DNA from: Vezdaea acicularis
Lineage: Eukaryota
Assembly: GCA_026025075.1 (NCBI GenBank)
Contig: JAPEUI010000028.1
Span: 124,001 to 170,970, forward strand
DNA: 46,970 nt
Direction of reading: 5' to 3'
Shown one piece after another: positions 7,747-45,977 of the stretch. Position numbers and translations under genes: made by a program. Each line of letters starts with the position of its first letter. The first letter of the stretch is position 1. The notes under the pieces were generated by a model. It was not told where the DNA came from and searched no databases. It was given only the letters and a program-made list of their open reading frames with translations.

Positions 7747-8547
7747 TCAACTTGAATGCCCGGTCGCGAAATTGGTATCATTACTAAGGGGGGCGGGATA
7801 TCCTGGGCAGAACGGAATGGCATCCGGCTTTCGATAAGAATTTACACTTCCTGAAACCAAACATATGGAGTATTCAACTTGAGCCTGAGCATTCTTCTGC
7901 GAATTTGGGACCAGCACGGGGAAGTGCACTTCGTAATATTCGTAGCGATTGTTGCATTTGCAATCTGTTGACCCTTTACAACTAGTCTCTTTCCAGCCAG
8001 TGACGTTGTACACTGTAGCGATGGCTTCGATTCCACATGTATATCCAGGAGGACATTGTACGGACGTGGTTATAGCTTCTGCGTTGGTTGTGGAAATGGA
8101 TATATCAGCATGAAGGCCGAGTCCGAAGATATGACCGCTATTATCTGTATTAATATACGATAGAGCAATTTCACATAGAGCGAGGCCTATCTTACAGACT
8201 GAGGTCAGCGCCTAGCGTTGTAGTGACGGTTACAGCATATCCCTGCGTGTTTCCGATTGTGCAGCCTATTACAGTTAGTCCTTGTTGTTGTACACTATAA
8301 AGAAGCAGACGATTCTACCGGAATATGTTGCGTTACACATGGCCCCCGCAACCAGTTGCGGAGGTAATTGTATACCATATTCGCCAGTGACATTGTATCT
8401 TTCCGTGGACTGACAAGTGTATCCGCCGCTAAATCCAGAATCTCGCCCAAAGAGCCCTTTAGTCACCCATGAAAGTGACAGAGGGATGGCAAAAATGGGT
8501 GATAATAGTAGGAAGAAAGCCAACAAGTAGACTATTGGTAGGAACAT
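7747..8547 (-). CDS. Small secreted cysteine-rich protein (~229 aa, 10 Cys), effector-like
   Basis: Hydrophobic signal peptide MFLPIVYLLAFFLLLSPIFA. Introns 8266-8318 and 8138-8195 join three exons (229+70+391 = 690 nt) into one open frame. Confidence 0.75.
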
Positions 8548-11678: not shown

Positions 11679-13743
<2,065 letters not shown>

Positions 13744-14609
13744 GATGATGAATTATAGAGAACGTGAACCTGTGCAACAATCCGTTGAATTGCTTTCGCG
13801 ACCGCAGAACGGCCGGTTGCAAGCGGGACCTTTCCTTGTGAAAGATCACCAGCGGGGCGGCGTGTGGTGCTGACCGGGCCAAGCTGGTGCACTGGAAATT
13901 ATTCAGTTCGAAATTTTGTTTAGATAGCGCTCGATATTCGCACAGGCGATGGCCAGGGTGTCAGCGCGGGCAAGCCGATCAGATTTGACGTCAAATTATG
14001 GTGATGGGGTTTCTTGGGACCGCCCACTCTCCAAGCGCCGAACTCTTCTCGTTAAGACTGGGTGACTTTGCGACGCTCGTGTTCCTGTGATTGGCGTTTG
14101 ATTAGTAGCGACTTTGCAATGGAAGCTTTATTAGGTGCTAAGTCGATAGATGCCAACTAGATCTCTATTATGGTGCTGCTCTCTTAACAGAGCTTAGGAT
14201 GTATACTTCTAGTTGCTCAAATTTATTCTGTGGCGTTTTAGAGCCGAAAGATATTGTGGGGACTGATCGATTACGCCTCAGATATATAGAAGAGACTGCG
14301 AGTGAATGCAACTACAAACTATAATCAACCGAGCCATGTAGAGACAACATTTGTAGGCATAAATGAATGTCTATAGGTGAAAAGGGTACGGGGTTGGACA
14401 GCCGTATGACATAAACAAGTCTCCGGGAGCTGTTCCGTTGCATCGGGCGAGATGCAGGAGAACTGATGACGGCGGAATGCGGGCGGAGAGTTCCCTTCCC
14501 CTGGACGTTCGCTTTCACCCCACACAGCAAGCTGCCGGCAACCCACTAATATCGCGAGCCAAAAGCTTGGTTCGCAAATGGTATTTAGACCCACTCCGAC
14601 ACCACCAGG

Positions 14610-16332
14610 ATGCCGTCGCCGGGCTCTATGCCCTCCGCCTTGACGTTTGACCTTTTGGCTAAGTGCTCAGTGCGCTCTAGAACCCTGCAAGTCTTACAGC
14701 TTGACTGATTCGTAAACAGGTCACGAAAGCGCGAGCCTCACTTCTTCGGCTGCCCCATGGACCTGTTGAACTACCCATCTTCATGCCAGTCGCAACTCAG
14801 GGCACTCTTAAAGGTCTCACGCCCGAACAGTTAGAAGGAACTGGCTGCCGGTTATGTTTGAACAACACATATCACCTGTAGGTGCCCAGGGACCCCACCG
14901 GCAAAGCTGAAGCTCGCTTCATTGATAGACTCACCTCTACCCTAGCGGTCTCAAACCGGGGCAAGCGATCCTTGATGCTGTGGGTGGCGCTCACAAATTC
15001 CAGTCATGGAGCCACAACATCCTTACAGGTTTGTGAGAGGATCTAGAGGCGGCTGGTGTCACTTGCAGTTAGCTGATCTGAAGATAAGATAGTGGTGGGT
15101 CGGTTGAGCCTAACGATCTTTCTATATACAAAATGCTCATAGAAGCCTCAGCTTTCAAATGGTATCACTGCTCAAGCTAGCACGCGTAACAGAGGAGGGT
15201 GTCAAGTTCCTCAGTCCCCATGATGGTACGCCCATGTAAGTCCTGATACGGCCTCGCCGTAAGGCCCTCCTTACTAACTCTTCTGCGTCATAAAGGCTGC
15301 TCTCCCCAGAGCACTCCATATCCCTCCAAAATTCCATAGGTTCCGACATCATTATGCAGCTGGACGACGTGATCGCAACAACCTCACCTGACCTGGCTCG
15401 GATTAAGGAAGCTACGCATCGTTCAATACGCTGGCTTGATCGATGCATCGACGCACACAAGTATCCAGAGAGACAAAATTTATTTTGTATCATTCAAGGC
15501 GGTCTCGATCTTGACCTAAGAAGAGAATGCTGTAAGGAGATGGTCCGAAGAGATACGCCCGGGATTGCAATAGGAGGGTTGTCTGGGGGTGAGGCGAAGG
15601 AAGCATATTGCAAAGTGTACTATATTCCTTTTGCTGAACCCTTGATCGATCCCTGACCTACTCCAGAGTGGATACCTGTACTGGGCTATTACCAGACGGA
15701 AAGCCTCGCTATGTTATGGGCGTGGTGTGTAACCGAAGATATTCAAGGCGCAAAACTTTTGCTGACTGATCCAAAGGGCTACCCTGAAGACCTGATGGTA
15801 TCTGTCGCCCTTGGCGCGGATATGTTCGATTGCGTGTGGCCCACTCGGACCGCCGTATGTATATCCATTTGACGACGCTAGAACGCCGAATAGCTGACGC
15901 GCCCTAGCGTTTTGGGAATGCGGTGACATCAACCGGTGTATTGAATCTACGGCATGCGTCATATGCTGAAGACTTCTCTCCAGTAGAGGATGACTGTGGC
16001 TGTCAGTGTTGCCGTCCAGCCAGCGAAGGCGGGCTCGGCGTAACCCGTGCTTTCATATACCACTTGGCTGCAAAGGAAACTGTTGGGGCGCACTTGTAAG
16101 TGACTGTCACATGCTGTCACAATTTCCTAAGGTTAACGACCATGACAGACTTACGATGCACAATGTATACTACCAGCTGCAGCTGATGAAGTCCGCCCGA
16201 ACAGCCATTATCGAAGATCGCTTTCCAGCCTTCTTGAGAGACTTCTTTGCCCAGCTGTATGACAACCCGAGAAAATACCCATGCTGGGCTGTCGATGCGT
16301 TGCGGAGGGTAGGTGTGGACTTGCTCTCTTGA
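14610..16332 (+). CDS. QTRT1: Queuine tRNA-ribosyltransferase catalytic subunit
   Basis: [68 protein letters not shown] zinc site and LTMHN; nine introns can be assigned. Confidence 0.93.
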
Positions 16333-16364
16333 TATCCTATTGCATTCAAATAGCAACTAGACAT

Positions 16365-17068
16365 TCATCCCCTCATGGCCTGCTGCAACTCATTCCAGGC
16401 CTTCTCTTCCTCATCTCTCGCTTGACTTTCTAGACTCTCGCTCTTGACATCAACCTCCGCCCTCATCCCGAACCTCTCCTCGTCCTCTTCCTCCATCGTC
16501 GCGATGACCGTCGCCGTTGCGTAATCCCCATCGTGACTAATGGAGCAACTCTGCTTCAGGAACTCCGGCGGTGGCGGCCTTCCTAGAAGTCCAAGAACCT
16601 CTGGATCTCCTTCAGGAGGCATCTCTACCCCCCTGCTCTTCGTACTCTCCACCATCTGATTATCGCCGTTATTCTTGACCAGCAAGAATATCGAGCCACC
16701 CTTCCTTGTATGCACGTCTACATGATGCCAATATACGCTCCTCCACCAATTGGCCTTCTTCGCCGCCTCCTTGACTGCGAATCTGCGCGCCACAAAGTAC
16801 AATTAGCCCGATCATCCCAAAGACTTTCCAGAGGCTAACCAGGCCAGCTCTCTTACCTTCCAGCAATGAATTGCGCCCTCCTTCTAACTGTCATATCAAT
16901 AAGCTTGTTCTCCACTCCCAGCTTGCCTAGCTCTTGAGAGCTGAAGAGCTTGCGCACGAAGGGCATGAAATCCTTGCCCTCTCTTTGTGTAATGATCTTG
17001 TAGATGCGCGGAATATGGCATATATCGGTTCCGATACTAAGACTTGCGCCTAGCTTCCTCGATGCCAT
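16365..17068 (-). CDS. PPT2: AcpS-type 4'-phosphopantetheinyl transferase (mitochondrial holo-ACP synthase)
   Basis: IGTDICHIPRI, FIAGR|FAVKEAAKKA across one intron and SISHDGDYATA, the three AcpS motifs. Confidence 0.85.
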
Positions 17069-17654
17069 TGAAGGACGAGGAAGGGGAGATGCGGAAGTAG
17101 AGCTGCTCGGCAGAGCTTCGAACGCGAGGAAATTTTGAGAGCTAGAATGCAACTAGAAAGTCTTGGCGCGGAATTGCCTCCGCTGGCTAAGAGATCTGGT
17201 ATAACACTCATGATTTAAGTTTGGGACCCCCAAGTGTTCCCATCAATCAATGTGCGGGCTCAGTATTCATAACTTGATGATATAGCCTATTACTGGAGAG
17301 AGATTATATATTTAGGGATGCTGCACCCTTAAGCTTCACAAAGTCCCACCCAACCCTTAGAATGCCATTCGCTAAACAACGTCAAGCAAAAGTAGGCTAA
17401 GGAAGTGAAACAGAGTTTGGAGGGCGAATAGAAAGCAATGCCAATCAGGTCTGGAGCAATGACCTGAAAGTAGCGTCCAACTAGGAATCGGTATTAATGA
17501 AAAAGGGTCACTCAGTGTCCTACGATGTTCTGCATCCACCCGTTCAAACAGCTTCGCATGCTGGCTATCAGAGTATTGTAACATCAACCGACTTCACCAT
17601 GTCGGATCGAGACATCTCATCCACCACATCTTATGCTAGAACCTTCTCAAAACT

Positions 17655-18774
17655 TCAATGATCATCGAGAAGTGGCTGTCTCTCACGGTCTTCACTCACT
17701 CCGGCCCCACCCCGTCTGAAGGTAAACTTGCCATCTGTAAGACCTGGAACCGAGACGAGAATGGAGAAGACGAAAAGAGTGGCCATGATAGTAAAAGCAA
17801 AGATCCACTGGAAGGCAATGACTTTGGTGAGGAATTGGCCGACGCCAAGGGCTGATGGCTACATTAGCAAGAATCCTCTTTGTTAGGTAAATTTTGGACT
17901 CACAGGCAGAAAGCACACTAAGCTCGAAGCCAATGGTGTAATCCTTAAAGACAACGAGGAAAAACAACCCAAACACAAGGATCCCCCAGATGGCAATGTT
18001 TGCAAAAATCCTCGCGACAAGAGTATGGGCATTGACCATGACTGCACCATTCCAGAAGATAGCCACGAAAGTCCATGCCAGTGGAGCGGAAACAACTGGA
18101 ATATGAATGAATCTTGCGTAGTTGGAATGACGGAAGTATAGGGAGGCGAGATTAAAGAAATTAACAATCAAGAGCAACTCTGCCCACCAAAAGTGGGATC
18201 GGGACCAAAGCATGACCCATCCGAATTGTAGGAGGTTATTCGCAACAAAGTGGGATCCCACGTTGGCCGCCGAGGTAACATACTCGGTATTTGTGGAGAA
18301 GAGATGCCACACATATCCAAGCTGCAAAGCCCAGACGATGACCCTAGACAAGGCTGTAAGCATATAATAAGCTATCAGATCGAAATATAAGCTTACCAGT
18401 ATATGGATGTAATGGGCTCGTTCAACGCAAATGGAGTGGGATATGCCTTGTTTTGACCCCAGATTGTTCGACGGTGATATTTGCCCTCGGTGGGTTTGTG
18501 AACAGAGTAGAATACCGTCGTAAGAACAACCAGAAGCCAGGACAAAATAGTCACAACCTTGTATGCAATTACGTTGCTTCGGCTAACATCCTCCCGTTTG
18601 GAAAACGGATTGACTGTTCAATGAAGAGCAAAGATCAGTGATCAACCCATATTGAAAGGGCCATACTCGTTATGTATCGTGCACGAAAAGGGTATGAGAG
18701 GATGAGGCATGCTTTGCCCAGGCATGCGAGGACTAGGCAAGGAGATAAGACTGACTTCTGTGTAGAGTGTCCAT
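17655..18774 (-). CDS. Multi-pass fungal membrane protein (DUF1774-like)
   Basis: Spliced model MDTLHRI-NPFSKRE..; VGSHFVANNLLQFGWVMLW, IHIPVVSAPLAW and C-terminal ERQPLLDDH; about 7 hydrophobic segments. Family call from memory of similar proteins. Confidence 0.75.
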
Positions 18775-22838: not shown

Positions 22839-23458
22839 TGAGCTCGGCGGGGAAGGGGTAGGGTGGTGGGTGGGGGAGGTGGTTATGATGCGGGAGAGGC
22901 GCTGGGGAGGGTTAGGGCCGGGTATGGTAGAGGTAGGGGTTGGGGTAGGGTAAGGGATACGGGATGCTGTGCAAGAAGTTTCCACTTGCTTTGATCATAA
23001 GAGAGATAGACGACTAGCCGATACTCCGCCGCATACACCCCCTTCTTACCGCTTCTGCCATTCCACAACTCTCCCATATCTCCCTCCTTTCCCCCTCCCT
23101 CCCTCCCGGGGACCCCGGGCGTTGTAGCATCGTCGTAACATCACAGAAACCGGCAACATCCACCCCTTGGGTTTCTTTCGTTCGGTTGTTTTTCGACCCC
23201 AACGTCTCTACCCCCGCAGCATCTCCAATAGACCAGGTCCACCCCTACACTTCCTTCCCGCAAATATTCCTTCCCAACCCATTCATATCCTCAACCTACA
23301 TATCACACCCACCCCCCTGCCAAATATCCCCCCCCCCCCTAAAACTTCTCCACCAGGTCCCATACACCCTCCACGACATGCCCCGCTGCGTCGAAGTATG
23401 TGTCGCTAACCTCATATTGTCCCGTCTACATGACAATCTCCTTTGTCTTCGGACGGTA

Positions 23459-23542: not shown

Positions 23543-24070
23543 AAGAGGGCGTGGAGGGTTTGGTTTGAGGTTTTCTTCGTGGGATAATCCCGCGGGGGAG
23601 AAAGGGAGGGGAGAGGGAGGCTGTGTTATGGAACAAGCTTCATCACTACAATCTACAGGCCATATTGAACCCAGAGTAGCTTGCACAATCCATTGTTCCC
23701 TATAGGTATCATATATACAACCCCACCAACGCCCATGACCCGCCATCCAAGCCGAAGGAGTGATATGATTCCATGAGTGGGACGAGCTCAAGAAGGGAGA
23801 AAGATGATACCACCAATAGCCAACCATAATCCCAAGCCAACCGTCCGCAGGACTGGGAGCCTGCATCCCATGCAACGCGCCACTTTGCGCCCTGGCCCTC
23901 CGCGAAGAGGATCGCTCGGTATAACCAACCATATAGTAGTGGTAGTAGTAGCCGGCCACGCGCCCTAGTAAGACAGTGATAGTAACCCCAAAGACATTAC
24001 TGTATCGTAGTGGTAAAGGGAGCAAAGAGCCGAATGGATGCACGCTGTTTATGCAACCATGCAGTAAACG

Positions 24071-25496
24071 CTAAGCCTTCGCCGAGATCTGTCGTAGAGG
24101 AGAGTGCCGGGTTTGAGTACTGCTATTATGGTTGGAGTTGCGGCGACTGAAAACCTCGTCGATGAGCCGCTTGGGGCCGACGTACTCCATATCCATCTTC
24201 AATGACTTCTTCATTGGGACTGGGACCATGATATGCACGGATCGCTTCGTGTGGAAGCGTCGTGCGATGCTGTCATCCACCAACGCCGTGAGACCAGTAG
24301 AAACAATTACACTGGGGCAACTTATCAGTTCCTGGACTTATCGTTTTCATCGACAATGAGGTGACTTACTCTGCAACGTCTGTCAATCCGCTTAGCACCG
24401 TCGGATCATTAATCCACATCGAACACTGTGGCACCCAACCACCCTTTGCTTCCTCTTCCGCGGCTTGTTGAGGCGTCAAGCTGTCAGGTACAAGATAGGC
24501 GATAGAGTTGCCTCCATGCGTGTTGACGAGTTGAAAGGATACCTCGCGTTGAGCAGCATTCTTCTTTACAATGCGCTTCCACGCGTAAGTGGAACCCCAG
24601 TATTCAAACTCATAACGTTTTGACTGCTTCGAACCTTGACGCTTGATATTCACATGAGCGTAGTTGGAGAACTCAAGCCTGGTGGCCTTCGTGGGAGTAC
24701 TCTCTGCAGGAGTCTTCCCAAATGACACCGGCCTGGCATCGGCAGTCGACTCTTCGTCAAAGGAGTCGTATCCGCTGTCATGTCGCTTCAATGAGTTTCC
24801 GGGATGTGGTGCTTTCGACTCTTCCTTGTGGCCACGGATACTGGACAGGACATTGCTGACGGATCGTTGAAGACCTGGTCGCTTGTTGTTGGTGGCCTTG
24901 ACAATCCGACGTGTGTTGCAAACTTCCCGACCAGAATCGCGATGATACCGACGCAGAGAGAATTCTCGATTCCTAAGATCATGCATGCGAAGGTGGAACA
25001 GTGTGACGTCCCGCATCATGCCATGAGAATCGTTTACAGGAGTGTCGACTCGAAGGTTCATGTTTCCATCTAGGGTGGTATCATCATGTCGAATGACGAG
25101 TCGTCGCTGAGATGGGAAGAGCTCTGCAAACTCAGAAGGAGACGACGGTGTGACCGTGGATCGAGCAAGCTGGTCTCTATAATCCCTCTCGTCATATTCT
25201 ATAACTTCGTACTCGGGGTCGTAATCCTCAAAGTCTTCTTCGGACGGGATCGAAGAGGCAAGCGTCGATGATGAATCTCTTAGGTCGACGCTGCAGCTCG
25301 GCGAGAGGCTTGGATCAAACGTGTCGTATCTCGATCCGGTACTGTCGTACTTCCTGAGCGACGGTCGTGAAGGAAAGCCGTACGAGGTCGGTGCTGTGCT
25401 ATGAGAATGATCTGATCTATTGTCGGTGAATCGTGAGCTTGTCGAACCTTCACTCATATCGCTATAGTATCGCTGAACTCCAGCTCTTGAGGCCAT
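24071..25496 (-). CDS. Conserved hypothetical Pezizomycotina protein
   Basis: 379-codon open exon (LVIRHDDTTLDGNMNLRVD, LFHLRMHDLRNREFSLRRY, KRYEFEYWG, GGWVPQCSMWI) plus a terminal exon after a GTAAGT intron (VIVSTGLTALVDDSI). Confidence 0.8.
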
Positions 25497-26568
25497 GTCG
25501 AACAATTAAATATTCGTATGAATGAAACAAACACCGCTAGCCGTCCGAAAAAGAGGTTGTGGGGAGAGAGATGGAAGATGATTTACAGAAGGCTGAATGG
25601 TGGTCGGTTAAGATTCTGGAAGGATGCGACCGTGTGTAATCTAAGAGGAAAGATGGCCCATGCGGGCTCGGTCTACTGTCGTGTCGTCATGTTGAAGATA
25701 GTGTTTTGATTGATCTGGGCTGGTGGGAATGCCATTGAAAGAGGATAGGTATTCGGTATTTATGAAGATGAGAGGGGGAGGGCGAGGTTTAGGTGTATGA
25801 AGAGGAAACGCCTCGAACCGGACCTGGGGGGAGGCGAGTGTTTAACGAAGAGACAAATCTGGGCCACACCTCCCAGGTCGGCTGGCGGTGCCCCACGCCC
25901 AGCGCCGAAAGGCGAGCGGTCCCCCCGGACAACACCATCAAATCACGGTCTAGTCGGCTGCGTCGCACGTAAATTCGTGCCGGAGGGGTGCCTAGACGAT
26001 TCTGCATTTACCCAGTCGCTCCGACAGCCTTCCGTCATCGCCAGCGCTTGATACTCGAGGATCGCGACAATGGCTCCGAGACGACGCAGCGTCCACGTAC
26101 GGAGAAGCGACGAGAAGCAGATCATGGTCCATGACTCCTCACCATTCACCACTGCCCTCCACGCCGCGGGCTGATGTGTTTCCTGACGAGCTCACCGCAG
26201 CCAAAGCGCTGGCTGAGCGCACGAGTACGAGGCGGAGTGCGCGGCGGCGGCTACGGGGGCCTATTGGTCCCATCGCTCCTCACACGACTCGCCGTGGGCC
26301 ACGTCCGAGGGCTGCCAAGAGCTGCCACAGGCCTGGCCCCCCTGCGCGACCCGGCCAATCAGCGGCCGCACGCCCGCCCAGCGCCTCTTTGGGCGTAGCA
26401 TGGGGCTGCCTGGGATCGTGGATTGCCCCGCTGGCCTCCGCTTCCAATTACCCTCGCCGCGCCCCGCCACGACCTCATCCCCCGACCCATCGCCGACGGC
26501 CGCGGACGACGGGCGGACTGGTCGTGGGGCAGCGGAATAATCGGCCGTTTCAGTCGCGGTGATCCAAT

Positions 26569-26592
26569 CCGACCGACCGACCGACCGACCGA
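26569..26592 (+). repeat. (CCGA)6 microsatellite
   Basis: ccgaccgaccgaccgaccgaccga visible directly. Confidence 0.9.
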
Positions 26593-27119
26593 ATCGGCGC
26601 GGGACGGTCGTACCTCGACTCGTCTAGCTCTCGCTCGTCTCGCGACTCCATATCGTCATCGCAACGGAGACGCGAAGTTGGCCAGAGCTGTCGAGGTCCA
26701 GGATTGGGTCGGAATGACATGACGACCCATTCCGCCCGTACGAGGGACGGTTCATGTCCTCTGCGTGCGACCGGCGCGGACATGCTTTGCCCAATCGCGA
26801 GAGCTATCTGCATCTCATCTTACCATCCGGATGGCAGTCCGACCACAAGAAACATGAAAACAGCTCGAGAAGGCGCCCACCCGCAACCAGAATGATGTAC
26901 CACTTGAGATAGAGCCGGTTTGGTGGACACGTGCCGCCTGCGACCGTGCAGACGCTGTTTTGCCTTGGCCCTTGCGTCTGGCAACAGTTGAGGGATCGGC
27001 GTTCCCAAACGTTTGCCCAAGGCGCACTTCCGACACATGTTTCACCAATCATCACTCCTGATCCGATGCATCAACAGAACGCCAATGGACGGGCCACCAT
27101 GCTCGCCGCCAAGTATAGC

Positions 27120-29041
27120 TCCAGGGTGTTCATCTAGATTCGGTGGAGAGCAGTTGCAAGAGCTCGACAGCCTTGGCCTCAAAGCTGGCTCGGGCGTGTC
27201 CGTCTCTGATATGTGGCGCTCCCTCCTGTTGCCTGATCCGAGCACGGCGCAACGTGTGAACGACAGGTACCGCACGGCCCAAGGCAACAGCCCTAACTCG
27301 ATATCTGAGAGAGTCATCAAATGGCCGCGCCTTGCCAAAGGATTCGTAACCCTTGCATCTCAACCATAAAACCAACAACCCTAACCCTCCGCCTCGAGCG
27401 GCCGCTGCGATCGGAATCGGAATCGGATGATGCCCAACGGGTACATGATACAAGCTCTGCGAGCGTATCGCTCCAGACCCCGAATCAAAGAGAACGCCCT
27501 CTTTCACCCCCAAATGCTTTGATCCGCACGGACCGTCGGCATACCTGGGACTGGCCACCTTCCAAATGCCAAAAGCAGTTTCGAAGAGTATCCACATTTC
27601 ATCATTCGGCAGTCGCCTACTCTCCTGGCGGAAGAGAATCTTCAAGATCATCGGTGAATATTTCACAGCGTGTGATCCGAGGTTTTTCTCTTATTAATCA
27701 TGAACAACGACCGTGATTGGTCGATGAATATTTCTTTTTCCGATCCCTTTTCTCATCCGACTCTTTCCGAGTCGGCGCGGAGAGCGAGCTCGGGACCCAC
27801 GGCCGAATGTTTTCCAGTACTTTCCTTTTCTGCTGCTATGTCACGAATCGCGGATGAACGGCCCTCATCTGCAATCAAACATTCGGTGGTCACAGAATGC
27901 ATTTGGAATTTCTATTTTTCCCAATGGGGAAGTCATCGCGTATCCTTCTCTACAGCTCCCTACCAGCTCGAAGGGTCGCAATATCCTCGGATTGACTACA
28001 TCAATGACCTCACTGACCTCAATAGATGCGAGAGTGAACCCAAGGTATCTATGCGTTAAGCAAGTCTTCTCTAGCTGCTCACCGCCGCCGCTCAAAGCTG
28101 CAAAGGACCCTGCATCAACACGCAGACTCATCTCTCCTCATCGCTCACAGCATCAACAAGCATCATGCCCGTAGCACTACTTCCGAATCCTCGTAAAGCT
28201 TACCCCTCCATAATCCCCTCGAGTCCAGCAACGAACATCCCTCCCTCTCTCCCCCTCACAGCTCGCAAAGTTCTACCTAAAGACGCATCCCCCCAGTGAA
28301 AGTGACATCAGCAGACTCCATCCAAGGCCCTTCCGTGACTCTGAACTGTGATCCAGAGACTCGCTCGGCTGGATCCAGTTATCGCGAATGCCTTCATCCT
28401 CCTCCATTTGCTGATCCTCCCCCCCCCGGTCCTTATCATCGCCATTAGGCGCCAAGAGGATTTCTTTTTCTCGTCGCACTAACGCTTTGATCATCGTCGC
28501 TTCGAATCTTGCAGTGGGAAGGATCGCGATGAAGTCATCTCGTTCGCTGCGGAGGGAAGTAAGTGTTGGTTACTTGACTTTTGTTTACCCCTTGGGTTCG
28601 GCGTTTGCTCCTTAGCTAGAGAGCGGTTTTCTGAGCGGTTCTTCGCTGCTTGCAGCCGGTTACTGGCGTGGTGGCCGAGTTGAGTTGTACTTGGCATCAT
28701 ATGCGCGGGATCTGCTGCTGCTGCTGTACGTGAAGGGGGATGGGTCTCGTTGCTTTACTTGTCTGCTCATATCCTTCGTCTGTAATGAGCTCGGGATTGC
28801 CTAGGCCAAATATTACGCTTTGGCCCCCGAGTCAAGTTCACCCAGTTTTCCAAATTGCAGATATCAGAACCCGTGAGGACCTCAGTAAGTATCTGGGCTG
28901 TCACCACTCGTTTCTTCCACTGCCCGGCCGCGCGAACGCCAGTCTGGTTAGAAGTTCTCTCGTGCTCATGAGATCTCTCCTTGTTACCTAGGTCCGATGG
29001 CAGGATTATTATGGTATATCGCGCCAGTGCCCTAGTATCAT
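27120..29041 (+). ncRNA. Candidate telomerase RNA (TER); ends approximate
   Basis: Template-like AACCCTAACCCT at 27377-27388; many nested 7-10 bp helices including a 5'/3' closing pair (27205-27212/28861-28868); ATAAGT at 29042-29047; no convincing protein ORF. Confidence 0.5.
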
Positions 29042-29652
29042 ATAAGTCTAGTTGCAGAATTTATAACAATTACGAGTATTGAGACGATATCGTGACCCCT
29101 ACAAACCATATCTCATATTTCACACCAGTTATTTACAGGTAGAACCGAATTTATCTTTTCTCGCATATCACACTTCTACGCTGTCCCCCCCCCCCTGCTG
29201 CCACTATGGCCAATTGAGGAGGATGTTAGGTTTCAGCTGCATTGTTGAGATTCGCTGATTGATTCACCTTGCTCTCCACAGGTGGGCGAATTCGGTGATG
29301 AGATGCTATATGCGTAGTAAGACAAAACAAATAGTGATGCTTCTTGCCGAGGTCTGAAGTGAAGTTTTGTCGGCTGTTGCCGTTTCGCTTTTCCACGACG
29401 TGAGGTTTGCGAGAACTTCTATCCATTTGACAGGAGATCTTTTCATTAATCAGCAGCTTAACGTGACTAGAGCAATTAAGCTATTGAGTGTAAAGATTGT
29501 CGGGTATCATGTGGAAAGTCTCGCCATGTCATAACATTGTTGAAGCAATTAACGTCCGAAGCTCCGAGCTCGACTCATCTACATCTACACCTCCAACTCC
29601 CTTCCACTCCTCCCCAACCACTCCCCAATATATTCACTAAACCAACCCCACA

Positions 29653-30274
29653 ATGGCCACCCGCCCCCTCCTCAGACCCTCTCGCCCCTTTCTCCACCGT
29701 CTCTACTCCACCCCTCCCAGCACCCCGCCTATGCTCCTCAAAATCCGGTAACCCTCCTCCCTCCCCTTCCCAGCTCCCCCCCCCCTTCCCAAACCACCCC
29801 AACTAACCCCTCCCTCCTCCTAGCAACGACCTAAAAACCGCCCTCAAAACATCCAACAAATCCCGCCTGCTCGTTCTCCGCTCCCTCCTCGCCTCCATAA
29901 TCCATAAATCCAAAACCGCCTCTCCAATAACAACAGACATACAACTCCTTTCCCACCTGCGCTCCCTAACTGCCGCTTCACGTAGCGCCGCGCAAGAATT
30001 TCGCGCTGCTAATAGAGAGGATTTAGGAGCAAAGGAAGACGCGCAGAGGAAGGTTTTGGAGGAGTATGTAGGCAGTGTGGAGCTGGTGGATGAGGAGGAT
30101 GTGAGGAGGGGGGTAAAGCAGGTGCTGGACGGGATTAGGGAGAAAGGTGAGGAGGTCAGGTTTGGGGCGGTGGTGAAGGCGTGTTTGGGGCCGGGAGGGG
30201 TGTTTGAGGGGAGGAATGTGGAGAGGGGGGAGGTTGTTAGGGTGGTCAAGGAGGTGGTGGATGGGTTGGGGTAG
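29653..30274 (+). CDS. AIM41: Mitochondrial YqeY-domain protein (altered inheritance of mitochondria 41)
   Basis: Presequence MATRPLLRPSRPFLHRLYST..PPMLLKIR, one intron, then NDLKTALKTSNKSRLLVLRSLLA..AAQEFRAANREDLGAKEDAQRKVLEEY. Confidence 0.82.
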
Positions 30275-30661
30275 GGTAGGGAGGCAGTGGGGCGGCAGGT
30301 GGATCGGATGTATATAGGGGGGTGTCCGGAGACTAAACTCTGCTCTTTGGGAAATGATGTACTGCATTAGAAGCGCACCGCCATGGCTCACGGAGGGGCT
30401 GATAGATTCTTCTGTGCACGAGAGCGCAATGCGTCGATGATGCCATATATCACTGTAGTCAAGGGCTGGCGTTCGCAAACGGTTGGTCATAGAGAAAACC
30501 CATGCACGCGCCTACCGCAGGGAGGCTACTTCAATTGCACGACATGGAAGAAGAAATACAGAATCGCCACCCAAGGCAAGCGCAAAGAGAGAGCAGTAGA
30601 CCCATCATCTACAACAACCTCGATGGAAGCGGAACTGTAAAACCAAAAACCTCGCGAATGC

Positions 30662-32025
30662 CTACGCGCCGCTACGATTCTTTTGATAGCCAGCCTAGGT
30701 GAGCGACGTCAGCATGTCTTGATCTGGTACATCCACTGCATTGAAGAAATCAACTGTTTCTCGCTCGTGGCGAAGAAAATCGACGTACCTCTTGCTCTAC
30801 CTGGAGGCTTTCAACGACGGGGGCCAGTTCGCTCAGAATTTCATAAGCTTGCTTGTGGAACTCTACTTGGGCAGCGATAAGCTCTGTAAGGTTACGCAGC
30901 GGTTCGGGGGTATCGAGGACCTAGGGGCAATCTTAGCACTGCTCCCAAGTCAAATGGTGCTAGGGGAACGGACATTCTTCATCACCCCCATTGCTTCCTC
31001 AGTCTGAGCAAAGAACTGATCTTCCGCTTGCTCGATTTCAGCTCTAGCATGCTCATCAATGGTTGCGTCGTCGTGGGGCCCCTTCGCTTGGCCAGCTATA
31101 TTCCATCCTGGTCCCGCCTTAGCCCTCGCCTTCGCCGCATCCAGGAGGAGTCGAGAATTCTCAACGCCTTTCCTGGCTTTAGCAGCGAACATGAGGTTTG
31201 TATTGAGCGTGGTGTTCCACCCAGCTAGGAAACGGCTCTGGATCTGAGCATCTTGTGCGAGGCGTGCTTCGCCGACTTTTTCACTCGCGAGGGCGTACTT
31301 TTCGAGAGCACTTGCTAGAGGATCTTCATCGGTCCCTTCGTGCTTCTGTTGTAGAAGCTGACTGCTGGCAAGTGAGGCGCGGGCGATTGCGTGGTTGAAG
31401 GTTTTGGGCTGTGGCTTTGCGGTTGGGGGGGCGGTAAAGGCAGCCTGGGCTTCGCCGGCAGATGAGGCAGTTGAGAGCAAATGAACCTTCTCGCTGATTG
31501 TGCGCCCCAAGTCGTTGAAGGACTCGCGGATATTGGGAGGGTAGTCGTAGGCTTCGTTTGAGTATTGAGATCTACGACAGCTTAGTGTAGTCCATTTGTA
31601 GTCAATAGATGCAGCATATACAAAGCTTAGACTTACGTGACTTGCAACATCTTCTGATGGACGGCTTTCAGAGTATCGACCTTCTTCTCTAGCTCTACAT
31701 ACTCATCGGGCATCTCCGTCTATGGGAAAATAGCTGTCAGCCTTTTCGTCCAAAGCTCACCCAGCGGTTGCCTGTGGTGATATCCTAAGGGCTTCCACTA
31801 CGGCGCTATTACCTTGTCTTCAGCTTGACCCAGTTGCTCCTTGACATATTGCTGTGTCCTTGTTGCGAACGGACTGAACGACGCTCTACACTCACGTTGT
31901 CAGCATACGTAGGTCCTACCCGCCATGCGCATAAGGTTCAAGACTATATAGCGTTCGGTCGTTTGAATTGCCTTTTGATAACGGACGTACGTAATGTTCT
32001 TTCCAAATGCCGAAACTTTGTCCAT
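30662..32025 (-). CDS. GVP36: BAR-domain protein
   Basis: MDKVSAFGKNI..QYVKEQLGQAEDKTEMPDEYVELEKKVD..YSNEAYDYPPNIRESF..PKTFNHAIARA..VMKNVLDTPEPLRNL; five introns. Confidence 0.88.
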
Positions 32026-32450: not shown

Positions 32451-32556
32451 TGATCAGACTGGGGATCGAACCCAGGACCTTGGCGTTATTAATGTACGGC
32501 GACGTGATCGCTTTAAACTATTAGCACCACGCTCTAACCAGCTGAGCTACCCGACC
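32451..32556 (-). tRNA. tRNA-Ile (AAT) with 32-nt intron
   Basis: GGTCGGG TA GCTC-AGCTGGTTA-GAGC G TGGTG-CT AAT A[intron]A-CGCCA AGGTC CTGGG-TTCGATC-CCCAG TCTGATC A; full cloverleaf with A and B boxes. Confidence 0.93.
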
Positions 32557-45721: not shown

Positions 45722-45977
45722 TAAATCCACACCATCCCCCCAAAAACCGATGCGCGGCCCCCCCGCCACAGGGTTCCTGGATCGCTGGCGCGCTCCGACA
45801 ATTTTAAGCTGCGGCACTAAATCCTTCCTCGGTGCGGGTGACGGGAAAGAAACCACCCAGGCTACCACCCTCCACGTTTTTTTGTCCTCGTTCTGCCCGC
45901 ATGCGGTCTTAGGGCGGCTTGGCGGATGTGGTATTTTCTACTTTCCTGGAGAGGGTTAGGGCGGGAGGAGAGGGTGG

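Follow-up and report, generated by a model that had tools for sequence, protein, structure and literature searches.

The telomerase RNAs (TERs) of the Pezizomycotina generally carry the 5′ splice site AUAAGU, in the Aspergilli and beyond them. Excerpts from the account of Neurospora crassa give a TER of 2049 nt (2425 nt in M. graminicola), with the template 5′-UAACCCUAA-3′ within nt 225-255, a template-pseudoknot core that reaches nt 1515 and P6/P6.1 at nt 1826-1864, P6.1 being a 4-bp stem closed by a 5-nt NUNGN loop (Qi et al., 2013, PMC3592445). For the Aspergilli, the excerpted accounts describe a boundary helix placed 5′ of the template at a distance of ∼2 nt, three to four base triples formed by U stretches and an A stretch that comes after them, a compact three-way junction, and a 3′ end marked by an Sm-like CGGC3-5U7-12 motif, AUAAGU and the branch site GCUAACU (Kuprys et al., 2013, PMC3603654), the 5′ splice site of TER being given as AUA(A/C)GU (Kuprys et al., 2013, PMC3603654; Kannan et al., 2015, PMC4299874). 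Here we consider a candidate TER gene in a 46,970-nt stretch of DNA from Vezdaea acicularis (contig JAPEUI010000028.1 of assembly GCA_026025075.1, positions 124,001 to 170,970 of the forward strand), referred to below as the window and numbered from its first letter. Within the interval scanned (25506-29653), which lies between two divergently oriented genes, a conserved non-coding block around 27377 may be the telomerase RNA gene of this fungus, read from the + strand. We put the probability of this reading at roughly 0.4, and favor it because a rare, correctly oriented 12- or 13-mer, predicted to be unpaired, lies in a discrete conserved non-coding block of ∼2 kb. An earlier note on this DNA had proposed an unannotated TER of about 1.9 kb at the same place. 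That proposal agrees with the non-coding character of the DNA, the conservation of the block, the predicted unpaired template and the size range; no structural hallmark could be convincingly assigned, and the ends are different from or less certain than was claimed.

The template-like 12-mer, AACCCTAACCCT, comprises two C-strand telomeric repeats and, + strand transcription being assumed, falls within the range of Pezizomycotina TER templates, which hold more than one and up to two CCCUAA-type repeats. It was found in its place when the sequence was re-read and searched for motifs, as was every other motif that the earlier note had named. That the telomere repeat is TTAGGG is assumed here from other filamentous fungi, as excerpted from PMC4993307. 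At the scale of the window the 12-mer exceeds chance (a telomeric 12-mer on either strand arose in 5 of 500 first-order Markov simulations), and by our own arithmetic (4^12, six phases) a perfect one would be met in a given 2-kb block with a chance of ∼1 in 700-1400. Single-sequence fold predictions leave it mostly unpaired (mean probability 0.63-0.89, with 0.40-0.43 over the fold as a whole). Six runs, all of DNA, contain 26900-29300, and the contigs of four of them were aligned to 24000-31000, X1 and X2 including a strain with roughly 5% divergence; statements about single sites hold among the differences listed in these alignments. The sole such difference adjoining the 12-mer is a C>T at 27376, present in a variant contig of X1 and in X5 and X6, through which the telomeric match grows to 13 nt, and the 12-mer itself is likely unchanged in the related genomes. 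No degenerate telomeric repeats were read beside it, the window contains no terminal telomeric repeat array, and a scan of metagenomes with the template plus its flanks returned 0 matches. Telomere-like 10-mers occur elsewhere in the window at 726-735, 22908-22917 and 45952-45961, the latter two within G-rich GGGTAGGG-like low-complexity DNA and the first ∼400 nt upstream of an alcohol-dehydrogenase-like open reading frame (ORF).

The block that surrounds the 12-mer is 89-93% identical over 26674-28534 in two related genomes, X5 and X6. Its aligned pieces in X6 differ at 27 of 306 positions (26674-26979), 39 of 560 (27250-27809), 35 of 328 (27873-28200) and 23 of 221 (28314-28534), with 5, 3, 12 and 6 gaps in that order, and a 1-nt deletion at 27111 is shared by X5 and X6; small gaps in the pieces together with a shared 1-nt deletion form the pattern expected of non-coding DNA. 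A 6082-nt contig of X5 aligns continuously over 24013-28218 (291 differences, 53 gaps) and again over 28314-28540, past which, up to 29635, only four islands of 23-34 nt each are kept (28628-28661, 28922-28948, 29368-29390 and 29519-29549), the unaligned stretches spanning about the same length of DNA in X5. To the left, the match of one X6 contig is lost beyond 26560; to the right, the X6 contig itself runs out at 28534, which leaves X5 as the only source for the right-hand boundary of the block. The coding pieces of the left gene are 92-96% identical in X6, and the block aligns better than does the YqeY gene region, in which 104 of 609 positions are different in X5; on these alignments the ∼2-kb non-coding block appears to be kept as well as a neighboring gene. 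The comparison with relatives that had been proposed as a check places the block around the 12-mer in X5 and X6, but leaves the 3′ third, with ATAAGT, in poorly aligned DNA. Inside the block, 28218-28314 is replaced in X5 (95 nt against 101 other letters) and unaligned in X6 too, a variable insert like the expansion arms of structured RNAs.

The interval is taken, from its sequence, to be non-coding and intergenic. None of the nine interval ORFs tested (97-188 amino acids, aa) matched Pfam. A 186-aa ORF on the − strand that spans the 12-mer retrieved itself only among 501 candidates in a word-indexed search; with HMMER against 1.84 billion representatives it retrieved itself and a 2321-aa protein, matched weakly in ten stretches. 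A crude codon-usage score gave the − strand ORFs of the interval 0.02-0.06 per codon, on a scale that discriminates poorly, Pfam-supported ORFs of the window ranging from −0.03 to 0.20. The description of the locus as the largest ORF-poor gap holds when ORFs of at least 200 aa are counted (25506-30952) but fails at 150 aa, where 13465-17694 is larger. Features of the locus are collected in Table 1.

Table 1. Positions in the window of the candidate gene, its putative signals and the flanking genes.
Feature	Position	Strand	Basis or remark
Template-like 12-mer AACCCTAACCCT, two C-strand telomeric repeats	27377-27388	+	Motif search
Conserved non-coding block; candidate RNA body and promoter	26560-28540	+ (strand from template only)	X5 and X6 alignments
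Putative 5′ pairing element TCTGATAT	27205-27212	+	Sequence
Putative 3′ pairing element ATATCAGA	28861-28868	+	Sequence
GGAGAG	27145-27150	+	Sequence
CTCTCC	28975-28980	+	Sequence
U-rich tract cluster (starts 27683, 27731, 27744, 27820, 27915)	27683-27921	+	Pyrimidine tracts, T5 runs
Candidate long-range helix, 7+7 bp with 2-nt bulge	27829-27844 with 28302-28315	+	Colinear 7-mer matches 27829/28309 and 27838/28302
Pyrimidine tract (28461-28472), ACTAAC (28478-28483), TGCAG (28510-28514)	28461-28514	+	Sequence, motif search
CGTTCGC with GCGAACG	28541-28547 with 28932-28938	+	Inverted repeat I5
Canonical GTAAGT, alternative 3′-end site	28559-28564	+	19 nt past last X5-aligned base
P6.1-type hairpin AGTG-TTGGT-TACT, 4-bp stem, 5-nt NUNGN loop	28562-28574	+	Hairpin scan
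Island kept in X5, 34 nt	28628-28661	+	X5 joints 28540>28628 and 28661>28922
Island kept in X5, 27 nt	28922-28948	+	X5 alignment
Loosely Sm-like A/U tract GGATTATTATGG	29003-29014	+	By eye against AU5-6GR consensus (excerpt of PMC3603654)
ATAAGT, 3′-end site of the earlier note	29042-29047	+	Motif search
Left gene, conserved fungal gene of unknown function	24369-25496	−	
Right gene, YqeY/AIM41-like	start 29654	+	

If the block is a TER gene, TERT would use the 12-mer for alignment and templating as it synthesizes TTAGGG, the 5′ end of the RNA would fall within ∼26850-27200, and its 3′ end would result, as elsewhere in the Pezizomycotina, from a first-step cut by the spliceosome. A cut at AUAAGU (29042) would leave an RNA of ∼1.9-2.2 kb, and one at the canonical GUAAGU (28559), at the edge of conservation, an RNA of ∼1.4-1.7 kb; both sites are candidates, and no choice is made between them. 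In layout, the basis of the comparison in place of aligned sequence, the locus resembles that of the N. crassa TER as excerpted: it is long, intergenic and non-coding, and a CCCUAA-type template of ∼1.5-2 repeats, predicted to be single-stranded, would lie a few hundred nt into an RNA of 1.5-2.4 kb with U-rich tracts downstream, although the match, at 12 nt, is longer than the 9-nt template of N. crassa (Qi et al., 2013, PMC3592445). The U-rich tracts of the cluster lie 300-540 nt 3′ of the 12-mer and could form the U-rich side of a pseudoknot; a further tract stands at 28461-28472. The candidate long-range helix that joins 27829-27844 to 28302-28315 is beyond chance by our own estimate rather than by shuffling, and the pairing of 28541-28547 with 28932-28938 may connect the 3′ edge of the block with one of the islands kept in X5, in which case the RNA would extend past 28540.

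ATAAGT occurs once on the + strand in 25501-29700, about the chance expectation for a 6-mer in 4 kb, and lies on the strand of the 12-mer, 1665 nt 3′ of it. Like the AUAAGU of the Aspergillus TERs in the excerpted descriptions, it is single, on the right strand and at a plausible distance; a loosely Sm-like tract, GGATTATTATGG, precedes it by 28 nt, and a TTTACAG that ends at 29138 places a possible 3′ splice site 97 nt downstream of its first base (Kuprys et al., 2013, PMC3603654; Kannan et al., 2015, PMC4299874). The island at 28628-28661 holds TTCTGAG, a pyrimidine stretch and TTGCAG, and so resembles the branch site and 3′ splice site of a putative intron 28559-28655, while 28461-28514 looks like an intron end within the block, for which no 5′ splice site could be assigned. 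A canonical G at position 1 of GTAAGT would be expected to permit full splicing. We regard it as improbable that a TER of the lichen lineage is cut at GUAAGU (28559) with the island supplying branch site and 3′ splice site, rather than at AUAAGU, and with the P6.1-like hairpin overlapping the cut; were it so, the site would offer another means of stopping the spliceosome after its first step, or else the RNA would be a TER in competition with its own splicing.

Several results weigh against the telomerase RNA reading. Of the structural hallmarks sought none could be convincingly assigned, each being absent or at chance level. The triple-helix pseudoknot and P6.1, which could not be assigned by eye in the earlier note, did not emerge convincingly from motif and fold analyses either. 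No run of at least four A that could complete a U-A.U triple helix occurs on the + strand in 27572-29300, and complementarity and inverted-repeat searches found no convincing partner for the U-rich tracts. Hairpins with NUNGN loops number three in 27389-29100 (at 27389, 28562 and 28736), compared with a shuffled mean of 1.98 and a density across the window of 1.3 per kb per strand; the sole one within the aligned block abuts the template (27389), and at none of the three is there an adjacent P6 with a closing P5. The hairpin at 28562, the most promising of the three in appearance, overlaps GTAAGT, lies past the aligned block and extends into an 11-bp stem, its TTGGN-type loop being rarer in the window (0.117 hairpins per kb per strand) than NUNGN loops overall. 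In this the candidate is unlike the N. crassa TER as excerpted, with no assignable base-triple pseudoknot or P5/P6/P6.1 junction in its conserved part (Qi et al., 2013, PMC3592445). In four Rfam searches no telomerase family matched, whether at gathering score or with E up to 10, a result of limited weight given that the presence of a filamentous-ascomycete model in Rfam 15 is uncertain. The predicted fold of the + strand is not unusually stable (z = −1.09, 4 of 20 shuffles as stable), that of the − strand has z = −0.03, and 28300-28560 is likewise unremarkable. Upstream of the 12-mer the closest predicted helix stops 13-17 nt short of it, whereas the excerpted Aspergillus TERs have a stable helix at ∼2 nt from the template (Kuprys et al., 2013, PMC3603654).

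The putative ends fare little better. The elements said to pair the termini are present, but two 8-bp complementary matches between 27120-27320 and 28800-29047 are at chance level, at least one having been found in 184 of 500 shuffles (mean 0.60); six-bp matches between the same regions number 22, against a shuffled mean of 11.4. A 5′ end at 27120 gained no support of its own. At the other end the proposed ATAAGT is indeed present, but it, CTCTCC (28975) and ATATCAGA (28861) fall within the 3′ third that does not align at 80% in X5, one X1 contig joins 29027 to 29158 and so bridges ATAAGT, and no RCTRAC branch site was found after it. The interval also contains neither the Sm-like CGGC3-5U7-12 nor the promoter motif CRCGDCGCG of Aspergillus. 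Compared with the Aspergillus TERs of the excerpted accounts, the candidate therefore has no GCUAACU/GCUGACU-type branch site, neither of these two motifs, an AUAAGU region that is unconserved in X5, and a canonical GUAAGU at its conservation boundary (Kuprys et al., 2013, PMC3603654; Kannan et al., 2015, PMC4299874). The similarity drop at 28540, seen in one relative's contig, could be the boundary of a divergence segment and not the edge of a constrained gene. By extrapolated arithmetic, moreover, several telomeric 12-mers are expected by chance in a genome of tens of Mb.

Much of this evidence would fit the alternative that the block is some other non-coding element (a spliced long non-coding RNA, an extended shared promoter or a low-divergence segment) in which the 12-mer is coincidental, a reading that is somewhat doubtful and still a serious possibility. 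The TER-specific structures would then be missing, or at chance level, as found. The same element would account for splice signals on the + strand, where GTAAGT (28559), GTACGT (28726) and GTAAGT (28885) form a series, each with a plausible YAG within the next 60-100 nt, and where ACTAAC at 28478 is accompanied by a CAG that ends at 28514; the splice-like series in 28559-28950 points to a + strand transcript that crosses the non-conserved part and is spliced. The three further telomere-like 10-mers show that such motifs are not very rare in the window, and the 5-10% divergence from X5, unbroken over 24013-28218 through coding and non-coding DNA, suits a low-divergence segment as well as it suits constraint. 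Coincidence is nevertheless strained by the long odds, given above, of a 12-mer in a given 2-kb block, and by its lying predicted unpaired on the strand and in the place expected of a template. Conserved non-coding RNAs of ∼2 kb other than TERs are, to our knowledge, few in fungi.

It is unlikely that the 12-mer is instead a double site for a TTAGGG-binding protein of the Tbf1/Teb1/Tay1 type, with a regulatory or insulator role between the divergent genes. Decoupling of divergent gene pairs by Tbf1 in yeast is reportedly the subject of one paper, and the locus resembles yeast Tbf1-type sites in having a double TTAGGG/CCCTAA motif between divergent genes; it differs in that the 12-mer stands 1.9 kb and 2.3 kb from the genes and within 2 kb of conserved sequence. 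The orthologous loci of distant fungi bear on this alternative. From metagenome contigs, 80 loci around left-gene orthologues were taken, 49 of them with at least 2.5 kb upstream, and the prediction set beforehand was a G-strand motif at ∼−1.9 kb, on the opposite strand to the orthologue, the 12-mer itself being at −1881 relative to the left gene. An 11-mer, TAGGGTTAGGG, was found on the corresponding strand at −1780 to −1838 in 7 of the 49 loci (L003, L006-L011), all from one distant species (∼98% identity), and no other lineage among the 49 loci had a telomeric motif of at least 9 nt on the predicted strand. In one of the seven (L009), a convergent 1305-aa histone-deacetylase ORF has its stop only ∼690 nt from the motif, and no ATAAGT lies downstream of the motif. 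So short a space leaves little room for a TER and suits a role at the DNA level better, and the position of the motif, 1780-1838 nt upstream of the orthologue, also favors a binding site. Yet the motif is confined to this one species, telomeric 7-mers upstream of the orthologues are at expectation (68 and 66, compared with 68, in 186,138 nt), 1.9 kb from the start codon is far for a fungal promoter element, and a binding site would leave 2 kb of conserved flanks unexplained. The positional agreement of the distant-species 11-mer is probably a coincidence and not support, its chance being put roughly at 0.02-0.25 according to the strictness on position.

In L009 the motif reads CCCTAACCCTA at 7993-8003 (−), ∼1.8 kb upstream of the left-gene orthologue and on the strand facing away from it, in a 2.5-kb gap that adjoins the convergent histone-deacetylase gene (L003, L006-L011, a lichen-type fungus). 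It is followed by nine consecutive A and by a U-rich tract, and could be a short TER, a binding site or chance. The density of single-nucleotide polymorphisms among the seven copies had no informative pattern. A blastn comparison of the interval with the 80 loci found no shared sequence beyond noise and matches between one other locus (L056) and a (CGAC)n microsatellite (26568-26592), which stands where the block begins on the left. The YqeY gene was found in none of the 80 loci, and of seven neighboring proteins sought in them only M28 and R3H were found, both in L060 alone.

Eukaryotic genomes commonly contain short interstitial telomeric repeats, and one published study reportedly deals with such sites. 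That the 12-mer is such a relic, left by old break repair or chromosome-end capture and functionless now, is nevertheless very improbable, as it consists of two repeats only, is flanked by no degenerate ones, and lies within a block conserved between species. Least credible of all is an unannotated lineage-specific protein-coding gene of which the motif would be part, since the ORFs of 125-188 aa on both strands, the slightly positive codon scores of those on the − strand and the 173-aa ORF that has already been gene-called on a public contig and entered in a protein collection are outweighed by the lack of a Pfam match, relatives limited to one weak repeat-like match, small gaps in the aligned block pieces of the related genomes and a codon measure that separates real genes poorly.

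Were the telomerase RNA reading correct, Vezdaea, a lineage of lichen fungi, would gain its first TER; no paper that pairs ‘telomerase RNA’ with ‘Lecanoromycetes’ came up in a full-text literature search. The locus would also add a data point on how the template, the CR4/5-like junction and the spliceosomal 3′ end vary across the Pezizomycotina. The understanding of telomerase would be unchanged even so, the family, its architecture and its processing having already been described, and core domains (template-pseudoknot and three-way junction) of 73 Pezizomycotina TERs having been published.

The left gene belongs to a family that is widespread in the Pezizomycotina (1848 relatives at E ≤ 0.001), has no Pfam domain and shows invariant blocks that include DGNMNLR and SGRE. 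Its product is identical at 375 of 376 residues to a protein from a public Vezdaea acicularis metagenome-assembled genome, where the gene model is 455 aa and the gene is lengthened, apparently via a 3′ intron. The next-best relatives are only 58% identical, which points to a sparsely sampled lineage. Beyond the right gene, a tRNA gene lies on the − strand at 32451-32556 (Rfam tRNA, 44.8 bits); with a span of 106 nt against a 71-position model, it probably bears an intron.

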